Assembly (NCBI RefSeq): GCF_055900595.2
Contig: NZ_JBVWEU010000010.1
Reading direction: 5' to 3' (one strand)
DNA from: a plasmid
Length of the DNA: 4,996 nt
Shown here: piece after piece, positions 176-4,575 of the stretch
How positions within the stretch are numbered: position 1 is the stretch's first letter
Layout: each line of letters opens with the position of its first letter
The notes under the pieces: generated by a model
The model's database searches: none
What the model was told of the DNA's origin: nothing
The model's input: only the letters and a program-made list of their open reading frames with translations
Translations under genes and position numbers: made by a program

Positions 176-280
176 ACAGATTTGGTGGCAGCGGTCTTGT
201 ACACCCTGTTACCACGGTTCAGAAGTTCCCCAACTTACTGATCCTTCGAAAAACCACCTCCCCAGGTGGTTTTTTCGTTT
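176..280 (+). ncRNA. RNA I antisense copy-number control RNA (ColE1-type)
   Basis: Starts at ACAGA (cf. pMB1 ACAGTATTTGG) about 7 nt downstream of a TAAACT -10 box; ends at an intrinsic terminator (stem accacct 253-259 / aggtggt 264-270, then a T-run). Length ~105 nt and position relative to the RNA II promoter match ColE1 RNA I. Stem-loop sequences differ from pMB1. Confidence 0.75.
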
Positions 281-495: not shown

Positions 496-1554
496 ATGGC
501 GATCTATGCCGTATGGAATAACAAGGGTGGTGTAGGGAAAAGTTACCTTACTTTTCAGTTAGCCTCTGAATATGCCAGACAGAACCCTACTAAAAAGGTC
601 CTGGTGGTTGACCTGTGCCCACAAGCGAACTCGTCCTCTATGTTACTTGGTGGAATGATAAATGGCGAAAACACACTAAACCAGATTCATTCAGCAATAC
701 AGAGAAAGACAATATCTGGATATATTGAGGATAGGATCAGAAGTCCATATATTCCTACCAACACTGGTTCTAGCTATGTAATAAATGTATCTACACACAA
801 TAGTAAAGTTCCAAATAATCTATATCTTGTCACTGGCGATGAACAATTAGAACTCCAAGCATCAAGAGTTGTTGGGGCATCATTTCCAGGTCCCCATGAT
901 GCATGGCGTACTGTTCACCTCTGGATTAATGATTTAATCAGTGACATTTGCAACTCATGGAATAATGAAGATAGCTGCGTATTCATTGACTGCAACCCTA
1001 GCTTCTCTATTTATACAGAGTTAGCTTTAACCGCAGCAGAGCGCCTTTTAATTCCTTTCTCTGCCGATGGTTCATCAAAGAGAGCAGTTAAGGCTGTACT
1101 TTCTTTAGTTTATGGTGAGCGTCGCCATCAGAATGAACCACAATCAGATTTCTATCTTAATAGCAATCGTTATTCTATGTCGCTACCACAAATATATATG
1201 TATGTTGGAAATAGATTAACGCAAATGAACAATTCATCTGCCAGTGCATTTAAGACGGTAGTAACCGAAATTGGTGATGAAATTTGGAAAGTATGGCAAA
1301 CAAAACCAAGTCTGTTTTGTATTCACCCAAATGGGAGCTCAACGCCAAATAATAAAAGATCTTTCAGGAATATGTTTCAGTATGAAGTAAATGATGCAAA
1401 CACAGCATCTGTCGTATCTGGAGCCTTAGGTATTCCAATCGCGACATTAACTGCAGGAAATAAAACTGTTTCAGGAAAAATAATAAAGGTTAATCAGACG
1501 CAGCTAGATAAACAAGTCCCCAACATTGTAGCTCTCGCTGGTATGATCGAATAA
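496..1554 (+). CDS. ParA/MinD/Soj-superfamily P-loop ATPase, 352 aa, with ~90-aa C-terminal extension of unknown function
   Basis: ATG preceded by AGGAG (484-488, 7-nt spacer). Deviant Walker A KGGVGKS at residues 10-16 (nt 523-543); ParA-type VLVVDLCPQANSS segment; Walker B-like CVFID (nt 976-990) followed by NPSFSIYTELALTAAERLLIPFSAD. Long uninterrupted ORF ending at a strong intrinsic terminator. AT-rich compared with the backbone. No symbol assigned because the specific family is not recognised. Confidence 0.85.
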   Translation: MAIYAVWNNKGGVGKSYLTFQLASEYARQNPTKKVLVVDLCPQANSSSMLLGGMINGENTLNQIHSAIQRKTISGYIEDRIRSPYIPTNTGSSYVINVSTHNSKVPNNLYLVTGDEQLELQASRVVGASFPGPHDAWRTVHLWINDLISDICNSWNNEDSCVFIDCNPSFSIYTELALTAAERLLIPFSADGSSKRAVKAVLSLVYGERRHQNEPQSDFYLNSNRYSMSLPQIYMYVGNRLTQMNNSSASAFKTVVTEIGDEIWKVWQTKPSLFCIHPNGSSTPNNKRSFRNMFQYEVNDANTASVVSGALGIPIATLTAGNKTVSGKIIKVNQTQLDKQVPNIVALAGMIE

Positions 1555-1556
1555 AA

Positions 1557-1590
1557 TAGCAAGGCCCTTAAAAGGGCCTTTTTTTATTTG
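1557..1590. terminator. Bidirectional intrinsic terminator between convergent genes
   Basis: Perfect 7-bp GC-rich stem aaggccc (1561-1567) / gggcctt (1574-1580) with 6-nt loop, followed on the plus strand by a T-run (1581-1585 and beyond) and flanked on the minus strand by a weaker U-rich stretch. Lies 3 nt after the ParA-like stop and just after the stop of the 1584-1841 minus-strand ORF. Confidence 0.7.
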
Positions 1591-1841
1591 TTTTTCTTTA
1601 CTGCTTGCAGCGCCCTGCCAGCACTAGAGGCCAACTCTTTGATTACATTATCTTTACTTTCAACAACCTCAGTAAGCAACTCGTTTTCGTTTTCCAGTTT
1701 ATTCAAAGCGTTCTGAGTATCTTCAATAGCATCATCATACCCTTCGGCATAGCCATCCATCCAACCAAGAGTATACGTTTGGTCCAAAAGATCAGCTTGC
1801 TTATCCTGCAGATCTTTATTCTGATTATTGTTAGAGCCCAT
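1584..1841 (-). CDS. Small acidic hypothetical protein, 85 aa (D/E/N/Q-rich, probably helical)
   Basis: ATG at 1841 preceded on the minus strand by TGAGGAAAAAAC (GAGG about 8 nt upstream); ends at the shared terminator. The plus-strand antisense ORF (1605-1901) starts with TTG, lacks an SD and is hydrophobic, so the minus-strand reading is preferred. No recognisable family. Confidence 0.6.
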   Translation of the reverse strand: MGSNNNQNKDLQDKQADLLDQTYTLGWMDGYAEGYDDAIEDTQNALNKLENENELLTEVVESKDNVIKELASSAGRALQAVKKNK

Positions 1842-2016
1842 GTTTTTTCCTCATTTGTTGGCGCATCTGAGTTTTCAAACCAGGAGGAATTCCATTTCTA
1901 AGTTTCTCACTTAGTCTGACTGGTGGTGTGTTTCCTGAGACTGGATTACAGTCAGCATCCACCCCGACATCTTTCTTTTTATAGTCGCCAATATTCCTAA
2001 CGTTATCTGTAGTCAT
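1831..2016 (-). CDS. Possible small basic protein, 61 aa, overlapping the start of the 85-aa ORF by 11 nt
   Basis: ATG at 2016 downstream of the AT-rich divergent promoter region; its last codons contain the SD of the next ORF (translational-coupling geometry). No convincing SD of its own and no recognisable motif; may be only a 5' leader. Confidence 0.3.
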   Translation of the reverse strand: MTTDNVRNIGDYKKKDVGVDADCNPVSGNTPPVRLSEKLRNGIPPGLKTQMRQQMRKKHGL

Positions 2017-2179
2017 AGAAAACCACGCCCATTGCTGTGAATAACCGAACTATAAACCAGAAAAAAAACGTACGGCTTATCATAACACTTGACACAAAAA
2101 AACACCGCTACTCTCCAAGCAAAAAACATAAAATTGGAAAAACAAAATCACAAGCACATGATAACAATAGATATTAATA

Positions 2180-2207
2180 TTTACTTACATTTAGTGAGTT
2201 TTATAAT
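2180..2207 (+). promoter_or_regulatory. Candidate sigma70 promoter for the 143-aa ORF (-35 TTTACT 2180-2185, -10 TATAAT 2202-2207)
   Basis: Exact TATAAT hexamer with a 16-bp spacer to a TTTACT -35-like hexamer, ~50 nt upstream of the ATG at 2259, inside a 240-bp AT-rich divergent intergenic region. Prediction by eye only. Confidence 0.35.
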
Positions 2208-2258
2208 TAGAAAAACAATGTAATTTAATAATCACAAACATTACCTAAGGACGAACTG

Positions 2259-2690
2259 ATGAAAATACCCGCGCATTTGAAGCATAAACCAATTATTCAA
2301 GTCGAAAATTACGACCGCATTGACGGCCCACATGCCGATGACACTGATGCTATGGGGCTATCTGTAGGTATTGCTCAATGGAACACTCCTGGATGGACTG
2401 AGCTTTCGGCAAAGGTTTGGCGAAACACAGGAGAAAAATGGTCAAGACAATCAGAAGAGCTGCCTCTTCACCGGGTAATCGACCTTGCAACTCTGATCTG
2501 TATCACCATGGACTACAGTAAAAATGGGCGACTTTCATCCAGTGATGATTTTCCCGTGACTCGCTCAACTGATAACCCTGAGCTAGCACATCACACTGAG
2601 TTTATGAAAAAAGAGTTAAAACAAAATAAAAGCAATCTTGATGTAAGCCTCAAACGCCTCTCGACTGAATTGAAGAGACTTGGCTATTAA
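2259..2690 (+). CDS. Hypothetical protein, 143 aa, unknown function
   Basis: ATG preceded by TAAGGA (2246-2251, 7-nt spacer); candidate promoter upstream; ORF ends 38 nt before the first Xer-like site. No recognisable catalytic motif; C-terminus is K/E/L-rich. Confidence 0.65.
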   Translation: MKIPAHLKHKPIIQVENYDRIDGPHADDTDAMGLSVGIAQWNTPGWTELSAKVWRNTGEKWSRQSEELPLHRVIDLATLICITMDYSKNGRLSSSDDFPVTRSTDNPELAHHTEFMKKELKQNKSNLDVSLKRLSTELKRLGY

Positions 2691-2783: not shown

Positions 2784-3188
2784 TCACCGGAAAAAATCAT
2801 CCACAGAGTCGCTCCACTCATGCCCGGAAAGAGACCACACCTTGTTTATAGGGGGAGGATAACCACTCCTGCAGTACCCGTTTTTTCCCACGAAATCGAA
2901 TGCCCCGTGCGGGTATCCATTGATCAGGAGTACGCACTTCTGACTGTCTTCTGACCAGCCAATTTTAACATCAGAAGGAATGTGACCGTCTGAAACGTCT
3001 TCGGCATTGTAGATGTGTACTGCGTCCATAATCGGGTTTCCCTCGACGGACTCATCGAGCGCATAGAAATACCCGGTCCGGCCATCGTCTTCGAACACGG
3101 CGGCCAGCATGCCCTCAGGAGCGAGGCTCTTTATAACCTGTTCCTCCCCGACAACGAGCTGGGCCTGTATCGTCACTAAAATGGTCAT
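2784..3188 (-). CDS. Hypothetical protein, 134 aa, GC-rich, cargo of the Xer-bounded cassette
   Basis: ATG at 3188 with AAGGAG about 10 nt upstream on the minus strand; the ORF fills almost all of the interval between the two Xer-like sites. No motif recognised. The overlapping 70-aa minus-strand ORF (3115-3327) is judged spurious. Confidence 0.6.
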   Translation of the reverse strand: MTILVTIQAQLVVGEEQVIKSLAPEGMLAAVFEDDGRTGYFYALDESVEGNPIMDAVHIYNAEDVSDGHIPSDVKIGWSEDSQKCVLLINGYPHGAFDFVGKNGYCRSGYPPPINKVWSLSGHEWSDSVDDFFR

Positions 3189-3245
3189 CAGGTCTGTTCT
3201 CCTTTCCTTGGTTGCTTCGGCAGCCAGCTTTCAGACAAGCGGATA

Positions 3246-3273
3246 ATTTACCATAACATCCGTTATCAGCATC
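3246..3273 (-). other. XerC/XerD-type site-specific recombination site (cer/dif-like), site 2; candidate plasmid multimer-resolution site
   Basis: Minus-strand reading GATGCTGATAA-CGGATG-TTATGGTAAAT; central region and XerD arm identical to site 1, XerC arm about 8 of 11 to consensus. About 300 bp of GC-rich sequence with no credible ORF lies on its XerC side (3274-3580), where cer-type accessory sequences would be expected. Confidence 0.6.
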
Positions 3274-3982: not shown

Positions 3983-4384
3983 TCAGGATTTTTTCCAGAA
4001 TTTCCACCATGGCGCCGGGGATTCAGTTAATTTTGCCTGGTGATTTTCAAGAAGGAGCATGGCCTGTTTCAGGCTGTCAATGTGCGAATCTTTGGACAAA
4101 AGTAAAGTGTTCAGGTGTTCAATCTCCTGTTTCAGATGACGAATCACCTGTTCACACTGGTCAACAGAGGCTGTATCGCGCTGTTCAGAGACCTGTCCAG
4201 AATGGTGTTCACCCTTCAGTTGTTCAAAGGGACCAAAGACACGTAAAAGCTCTGAAGTATCTACCATTTTTGCATTGCGCTCACCGCTACAGGTGGACAG
4301 GTCACCTGCTTTAATTAACCTGTGCAGTGTTGTTCTACTCTTACCCGTCAGTCGGGCTGCCTCACTAATAGACACTCTGGCCAT
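3983..4384 (-). CDS. HTH DNA-binding protein (excisionase/MerR-like HTH_17-type N-terminus) with C-terminal coiled-coil-like region, 133 aa
   Basis: N-terminus SISEAARLTGKSRTTLHRLIKAGDLS fits the excisionase-family HTH pattern (EAAxLxGxSxxTxxRLIxxGxL); the C-terminal half is heptad-like and Q/E/L-rich. Start ATG overlaps the rop stop (TGATG at 4382-4386), implying co-transcription and translational coupling. Its antisense 148-aa ORF is Arg-rich and judged spurious. Confidence 0.7.
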   Translation of the reverse strand: MARVSISEAARLTGKSRTTLHRLIKAGDLSTCSGERNAKMVDTSELLRVFGPFEQLKGEHHSGQVSEQRDTASVDQCEQVIRHLKQEIEHLNTLLLSKDSHIDSLKQAMLLLENHQAKLTESPAPWWKFWKKS

Positions 4385-4575
4385 CAGTTACCATCCTGTA
4401 ATGCATCCAGTCTCGAGGACAGTGTACGGAAAAGATGCTCCGCATCATCGTGGAGTTTCTCACAAAGGTCGGCCTCGACATCAAGATCAAGCTCGTTAAG
4501 CTTCTCCAGCAGGAGCAGAGATTGATGCTGGATGAATTTAGCCATGTTCAGCGCTGTTTTCTGTTGTTTCGTCAT
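4384..4575 (-). CDS. rop: Rop/Rom RNA I-RNA II interaction modulator, 63 aa
   Basis: Translation MTKQQKTALNMAKFIQHQSLLLLEKLNELDLDVEADLCEKLHDDAEHLFRTL... closely matches ColE1/pMB1 Rop (MTKQEKTALNMARFIRSQTLTLLEKLNELDADEQADICESLHD..., recalled from memory), with identical length of 63 aa; located just downstream of the origin in replication direction. Confidence 0.9.
   Translation of the reverse strand: MTKQQKTALNMAKFIQHQSLLLLEKLNELDLDVEADLCEKLHDDAEHLFRTLSSRLDALQDGN

Follow-up and report, generated by a model that had tools for sequence, protein, structure and literature searches.

A probable module junction in a ColE1-type plasmid, with a decayed TTA[G/C]TAA array at the predicted promoter of DUF6530

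We have analysed the 242-bp interval that separates a minus-strand operon of two small genes (61 and 85 aa) from the plus-strand gene of a DUF6530 protein in a small plasmid. The interval is probably a mosaic junction of two independently mobile modules and not a single control element. Its right part carries the predicted promoter of DUF6530, overlapped by a decayed copy of a tandem array of TTA[G/C]TAA units that is found intact upstream of DUF6530 in distantly related bacteria. The anatomy of the interval (Table 1) is given with high confidence. The explanation as a whole, in which the junction adjoins a DUF6530 promoter with a decayed repressor operator, DUF6530 would be the likeliest binder of that operator, and the gene would be de-repressed on this plasmid, commands somewhat better than even confidence on our part.

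The window, by which we mean the whole stretch of DNA that was analysed (4,996 nt), is a complete circular ColE1/ColRNAI-type plasmid. In PLSDB, at least 36 records match it over at least 80% of its length; those that match best are 4,991-bp plasmids of Klebsiella, E. coli and Enterobacter with 99.2-99.4% identity, and this plasmid type is common in Klebsiella and E. coli. Two PLSDB records with near-identical copies or fragments of the plasmid (NZ_CP059753.1 and NZ_CP072728.1) were deposited as Enterococcus faecium plasmids, and these may represent mixed cultures or contamination instead of true hosts. At a permissive threshold, RNAI was the sole Rfam match in the window, with none in 2017-2258. 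The genes on the two sides of the interval are divergent, as the preliminary description of this DNA had it.

Table 1. Features of the plasmid and of the interval, in window coordinates
Feature	Position	Strand	Details
RNAI	177-278		
ParA-like ATPase gene	496-1554	+	352 aa
85-aa gene	1584-1841	-	downstream gene of the minus-strand operon; acidic product (pI 4.3); hypothetical protein in RefSeq
61-aa gene	1831-2016	-	basic product, pI 10.0; start at 2016; 11-nt overlap with the start of the 85-aa gene
Conserved 5' leader of the 61-aa gene	2017-2048	-	nearly invariant alignment columns with L002-L005
Candidate promoter of the 61/85-aa operon	2049-2088	-	-35-like GTGTTA (2088-2083) and -10-like TATAGT (2054-2049), 28 bp apart
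A8 tract	2061-2068	+	within the ~11 extra bp of the minus-strand promoter spacer; A7 in OW968045.1
A-rich, poorly constrained spacer	~2089-2170		aligns with neither the ParA-module relatives nor other DUF6530 upstream regions
Orphan TTGACA	2089-2094	+	overlapping minus-strand GTGTCA (2095-2090) is the -35 of the weak candidate GTGTCA-17-TACGTT
A7 tract	2096-2102	+	
A6 tract	2121-2126	+	
A5 tract	2138-2142	+	
Predicted sigma-70 promoter of DUF6530	2180-2207	+	-35 TTTACT (2180-2185), 16-bp spacer, -10 TATAAT (2202-2207)
Decayed TTA[G/C]TAA array	2181-2231		TTACTtA (2181), TTAGTgA (2191), TTtaTAA (2200), TTAGaAA (2207), TTAaTAA (2225)
TATAAT	2202-2207	+	
A5 tract	2211-2215	+	
Shine-Dalgarno AAGGA	2247-2251	+	7 nt before the ATG; read from the sequence
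DUF6530 gene	2259-2690	+	143 aa; Pfam PF20140, E = 6e-46
DUF2251 gene	2784-3188	-	
HTH protein gene	3983-4384	-	
Rop gene	4384-4575	-	

The left part of the interval belongs, by alignment, with the genes to its left. Four diverged ColE1 plasmids (L002-L005) share the ParA-like/85-aa/61-aa module at 73-77% DNA identity, and their homology with the window runs into the interval to ~2075-2088, where it stops. In these plasmids the 61-aa protein retains 59-67% amino-acid identity, its frame is kept across an in-frame indel, and its C-terminus is invariant (LSEKLRN..P.GL..QMRQQMR.KHG). Judged by this conservation, the 61-aa ORF is a real gene, and it is predicted to be translationally coupled with the 85-aa gene. 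It is annotated as a CDS in L002-L005 and missing from the RefSeq records of the window's plasmid, an omission that is corrected here. The 85-aa protein is 81-85% identical at the amino-acid level in four diverged ColE1 plasmids and has no family match; neither small protein was assigned by PADLOC, PHROGs or NCBIfam. Basic 61-aa, acidic 85-aa and convergent 352-aa ParA-like ATPase genes make up a conserved three-gene module.

Within the leader of the 61-aa gene, the block ATTGCTGTGAATAACC (2031-2046) is unique in the window. Upstream of the leader, L002-L005 share (G/A)TGTTA-17-TATATT, and in 4/4 the distance from the end of the -10 to the ATG is 32 nt. The corresponding elements of the window are separated by 28 bp, as opposed to 17 bp in the relatives, and the ~11 extra bp include the A8 tract; we infer that this is the candidate promoter of the operon. 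The other minus-strand candidates, GTGTCA-17-TACGTT (score 7.4) and TTGTGA-17-TATGTT (score 9.6), are weak or distant. A strong promoter is predicted for the plus strand; for the minus strand what is present is the relatives' candidate with its 28-bp spacer.

On the right, homology with other DUF6530 upstream regions starts at ~2171 in the alignment, and these last ~90 bp (2171-2258) would comprise promoter, operator and leader of DUF6530. The predicted promoter there, TTTACT-16-TATAAT, has 10/12 consensus matches and was the top site on both plasmid strands in two independent scans. The promoters of RNAI and RNAII, used as a positive control, were matches 2 and 3 of the sigma-70 matrix scan. 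Transcription would start near 2214, with 51 nt from the end of the -10 to the ATG. By eye, the stretch from -38 to -59 (2155-2176) is AT-rich but resembles the UP consensus poorly. The TATAAT hexamer alone among the motifs singled out earlier is given meaning by its context, because the TTTACT lying 16 bp upstream completes the plasmid's top sigma-70 site. The TTGACA hexamer, listed with it, falls in no recognisable plus-strand promoter: no -10 partner scoring at least 3 lies 15-19 bp downstream of it, and so it has no usable -10. Neither hexamer is over-represented, TTGACA occurring twice in the window against 3.8 expected, and TATAAT once against 2.5.

Between the two sides lies the A-rich spacer. 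The plasmid was compared with OW968045.1, a 98.8%-identical variant, and 5/5 differences fell at 2061-2217 (A8 to A7, 2119, 2136, 2165 and 2217), three of the five (2119, 2136, 2165) in the spacer and none in a 175-bp coding stretch or the core promoter. The segment 2129-2156 possibly arose by duplication of 2202-2240 and subsequent decay: the two align with a score of 25, where shuffles gave 17.4 +/- 2.8 (P = 0.026). The flanks of the interval have evolved separately, and the limits of their modules fall within it; it is therefore not a control region that both shared ancestrally. Two short ORFs within the interval (46 and 44 aa) were dismissed for want of support. A centromere of parS/parC-type iterons for the ParA-like gene was also considered and rejected, as 1950-2300 holds only two-copy repeats of low significance, with the dense repeat field of the plasmid at 3577-3796. 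That field, of the GAGTC/GACTC type with at least 10 copies, includes a perfect 19-nt inverted repeat (3733-3751/3767-3785), is the most curved stretch of the plasmid in a wedge model (end-to-end ratio 0.55-0.63), and could be an iteron, centromere or oriT-like site.

The right-hand gene is a mobile cassette. DUF6530 was found on 118 plasmids as a stand-alone cassette with varied neighbours, so that the horizontal mobility attributed to the plus-strand gene is upheld by its presence in many unrelated plasmid contexts. The family comprises at least 4,576 clusters; no assignment was obtained from PADLOC, PHROGs or NCBIfam, and no paper on DUF6530 was found in the searchable literature. It is a widespread family without an assigned function and is often the sole cargo gene of small clinical plasmids. 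In an alignment of 51 homologues, the copy in the window is intact and has all family-invariant residues, the invariant core being KVWR...KWSRQSEELP...R..DL. An AlphaFold2 model (pLDDT 93.4) has a beta-sheet followed by three helices, with no recognisable DNA-binding fold, and the protein is not basic (pI 5-7). As modelled, the structure would speak neither for nor against DNA binding. In the genome loci (L019-L098), DUF6530 has recurrent downstream neighbours: at 33 loci, a gene of ~130 aa with weak similarity to GIY-YIG homing endonucleases follows it directly on the same strand (e.g., L087, 2005-2397), at 8 a MoxR-type AAA_5 ATPase comes after it (e.g., L080, 2077-3231), and at 5 a VWA/CobT-like protein.

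Upstream of DUF6530, a block of TTTACTAA/TTAGTAAA octamers is conserved in Enterobacterales, Aeromonas, Acinetobacter, Moraxella and Enterococcus. The same octamer was recovered from a genome sample made up of the best 80 of at least 589 loci in species-representative genomes, which is dominated by Bacillota and spans Bacillota, Spirochaetota, Verrucomicrobiota, Desulfobacterota, Planctomycetota and Pseudomonadota. In an unbiased 8-mer count over these best 80 loci, TTAGTAAA/TTTACTAA was the top word, present in 68 of 78 upstream regions, compared with 8 occurrences in 242,530 background positions. The core of the array is the 7-bp palindrome TTA[G/C]TAA, of which perfect copies occur at 16.7 per kb upstream of DUF6530 and at 0.11 per kb elsewhere. 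At least two perfect units were present at 63/78 genome loci; three units were the commonest number (29/78), and many loci had only two. Successive units were spaced exactly 8 bp apart in 88/123 cases. Intact arrays consist of 2-5 units and usually extend from just after the -10 to about +30. Where a strong promoter was predicted (54 loci), the array begins a median of 10 nt past the -10 and ends ~33 nt past it, ~26 nt short of the start codon. Spacing is not uniform across the family, which would have at least two array geometries: Acinetobacter plasmids L012 and L017 have a 12-bp period (e.g., -84, -72, -60, -48, -36, -24). The enterobacterial arrays have a 9/7 spacing, and no one fixed binding geometry accommodates all of these arrays.

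The centre base of the units bears on how the array is read. On the sense strand it was G in 92 units and C in 50, and a G or C centre was kept in 33/37 near-perfect flanking units, their AT-rich context notwithstanding. The use of both centre bases and the retention of a G/C centre point to recognition as double-stranded DNA, and would make an RNA element, or a cassette that only supplies stop codons, less likely. Given the position of the array in the transcribed leader, a role at the RNA level is possible.

The association of array and gene also emerged from a search that used no protein information. A metagenome scan for three tandem units gave 120 matches, of which 48 were directly upstream of DUF6530. 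Among the arrays with mixed G and C centres (n=38), 31 adjoin DUF6530, 4 lie at contig ends and 3 are exceptions; one of the exceptions precedes the gene of a MoxR-type ATPase, such as is found after DUF6530 in Paenibacillus, and another is upstream of a secreted protein. The remaining metagenome matches were mostly homogeneous 8-bp microsatellites in AT-rich DNA, and in a scan of viral contigs 31/31 matches were homogeneous microsatellites, with DUF6530 absent. Such homogeneous TTAGTAAA/TTACTAAA microsatellites, of 3-11 units and unrelated to DUF6530, were observed in metagenome and viral contigs (L099-L249), including giant-virus contigs; they are frequent where DNA is very AT-rich, and they confound scans for the array. 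At one locus (L135), the MoxR-type ATPase gene has a second array immediately before it. The scans gave no indication that the array serves a wider regulon. A search of the literature for the array sequence, and for the motif in an operator or repressor sense, found nothing relevant in what is searchable, and the array is apparently undescribed. On the plasmid lineage, the literature search gave general works on ColE1 plasmids only.

In the window this array has decayed. The segment 2181-2231 aligns column by column with the intact TTAGTAAATTTACTAATTAGTAAA of plasmids L007/L015 and with p5217 (intact arrays are also exemplified by OW969727.1 and pB1021). Its five units carry 1, 1, 2, 1 and 1 mismatches, and no perfect TTA[G/C]TAA occurs anywhere in the window; 4 of the window's 15 sites with one mismatch cluster in this segment. 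We class the copy as decayed because it is located like the arrays and homologous to them, yet is without perfect units. Where relatives of 90% identity have TTAGTAAATTTACTAATTAGTAAA, the window has TTAGTgAgTTTtaTAATTAGaAAA, and the substitutions in the middle unit turn TACTAAT into a perfect TATAAT. The promoter scores 12.7 in the window, compared with 8.5-8.7 at best in the closest relatives, p5217 and L007. A similarly decayed array was seen in L016, where the DUF6530 match is split into two pieces and possibly represents a pseudogene.

These observations suggest the following mechanism. The array would be a repressor operator recognised as double-stranded DNA, a function to which we attach moderate confidence. 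Its binder would most likely be DUF6530 itself, making the system autoregulatory. DUF6530 is the likeliest candidate because only the array and this gene always travel together, whereas the neighbours vary; that the protein is not basic speaks against it, and we put DUF6530 as the binder at about even. In the lineage of the window, where all units are mismatched, DUF6530 would be largely freed from that repression, and the perfect TATAAT created by the same substitutions would give stronger expression of the gene. The window allele is thus predicted to be operator-down and promoter-up under a repressor model, the opposite of a silenced gene. In the left ~70 bp, the -35 and -10 of the 61/85-aa operon would have been pushed out of register by the ~11 extra bp.

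A different account of the interval, in keeping with the preliminary description, is that of an A-tract-rich, curved or AT-rich nucleation site for H-NS that silences horizontally acquired genes in both directions. The listed motifs are all present at the positions given for them, and GC content reaches its plasmid minimum in the interval (0.285-0.31 in 242-bp windows), where the strand skew is strong (114 A, 55 T). H-NS prefers AT-rich DNA, DUF6530 is a mobile cassette, and occupancy by H-NS at 29% GC is possible. The specific features fare less well. Five runs of five or more A were counted, compared with 2.9 (mononucleotide) or 3.1 (dinucleotide) in shuffles of the region (P = 0.11-0.12), so the supposed A-tract richness lies within what the composition gives. 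The A-tracts look unremarkable, reflecting base composition with one local duplication possible. Neither AA/TT steps nor A-tracts have a 10-11 bp periodicity in the interval, and the wedge model predicts no curvature. With wedge angles that served relative comparison only, the interval ranks 146/250 among windows for bend (end-to-end ratio 0.938), and 82% of the shuffles made from it are more bent. The H-NS nucleation motif TCGATAAATT has no match of at least 8/10 in the interval, and 2 of the plasmid's 51 weaker matches (7/10) fall there, in proportion to its length. Moreover, within the region conservation is lowest in the A-rich block, the core promoter has shifted toward the consensus and not away from it, and silencing by titratable H-NS would be less certain on a multicopy plasmid. 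The sequence points to a promoter-up, operator-down state in place of the silencing that had been suggested for the flanking genes, and we regard H-NS nucleation as an unlikely explanation.

Two other readings concern the array itself. It could be an operator for a conserved host factor and not for DUF6530, the decayed copy in the window having escaped host control. Such a factor would suit a protein that is neither basic nor endowed with a recognisable DNA-binding fold; some universal regulators (e.g., DnaA and NrdR) keep their site specificity across phyla, and one mixed array precedes a MoxR-type ATPase and one a secreted protein. A host factor would be expected to have a regulon, yet 31/34 mixed arrays with a determinable neighbour adjoin DUF6530, and one of the exceptions lies in a DUF6530-linked cluster. 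The array also accompanies the gene into plasmids of Enterobacterales, Aeromonas, Moraxellales and Enterococcus. We know of no regulator with a TTA[G/C]TAA site, and the array sequence did not turn up in the searchable literature; binding by a host factor is, in our estimate, quite improbable. The array could instead act as a translational insulator or leader element, without being a protein site, and shield the mobile cassette from read-through translation. It sits in the leader between promoter and ribosome-binding site, and three units, the commonest number, place TAG/TAA stops in all frames of both strands at an 8-bp period. TTAATAA would provide equal stops, however, and the centre is nonetheless G or C in 33/37 near-perfect units; a specific 7-mer is kept across phyla when countless other sequences provide stops; the 12-bp period of Acinetobacter, a multiple of three, puts all stops in one frame; and many loci have only two units. 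This reading is very improbable. A repressor operator, most likely bound by DUF6530, is the interpretation that we prefer.

In its broadest form, this interpretation would make DUF6530 an unrecognised, cross-phylum, sequence-specific DNA-binding protein with a fold unlike solved structures. By coating the TTA[G/C]TAA array over the transcription start, it would repress the promoter of its own gene, together with a small linked operon in some genomes (GIY-YIG-like or MoxR/VWA genes), and the 5-kb plasmid of Klebsiella and E. coli would be a natural operator-down, promoter-up allele. We offer this proposal tentatively, its chance of being right falling somewhat short of even. The sharply defined cross-phylum cis-element makes the family directly testable as a new kind of DNA-binding autoregulator, with the plasmid of the window as a natural decayed-operator allele for comparison. 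The original description in terms of AT-richness, A-tracts and H-NS is ordinary, and its specific claims mostly fail.

The junction and the array can be set beside several known systems. H-NS-silenced regions such as proU and bgl resemble the interval in having a low GC content relative to the replicon and in lying upstream of a mobile gene. They differ from it in that the interval is without predicted curvature, phased A-tracts or a nucleation-motif match, its AT-rich block being an unconserved spacer.

Modules bounded by Xer sites (pdif-like) are a second point of comparison, as this plasmid too combines small cassettes in a mosaic. An exact 20-mer, AATTTACCATAACATCCGTT, occurs at 2727-2746 and 3245-3264 in direct orientation on both sides of DUF2251 (chance expectation 0), and once in plasmid L007 (1002-1020), 224 bp upstream of DUF6530. 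Its reverse complement contains TTATGGTAAAT, which we take to be the XerD arm of ColE1 cer. This cer-like flanking of DUF2251 suggests modules bounded by Xer sites, which would account for the shuffling of cassettes. Unlike such modules, the interval 2017-2258 holds no site of the AATTTACCATAACATCCGTT type, and the left edge of the plasmid's DUF6530 cassette is without a recognisable recombination site.

The closest parallels to the proposed regulation are MraZ, whose targets are GTGGG repeats ahead of the mraZ operon to which it belongs, and CtsR, which recognises heptad repeats. In these systems, as at DUF6530, a short unit recurs in tandem across the core promoter of the regulator's gene or operon, or immediately past it, the arrangement is kept across wide phylogenetic distances, and the gene is often the first in its operon. 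The DUF6530 array differs in that its 7-bp unit is palindromic, the centre may be either G or C, and the usual period of 8 bp places successive sites on different faces of the helix. DUF6530 further differs in being a putative binder only, without a recognised DNA-binding domain, and the copy in the window is degenerate. The unit itself has a counterpart in eukaryotes, TTA[C/G]TAA being the yeast Yap1 response element (AP-1/Yap type) that is bound by bZIP proteins. The 7-bp sequence and its symmetry are identical, and two 3-bp half-sites abut a central C/G, as suits a dimer that reads adjacent major grooves. DUF6530, by contrast, is modelled with helices after a beta-sheet, and no basic region precedes the C-terminal helices, so that the resemblance is one of sites only and implies no homology.
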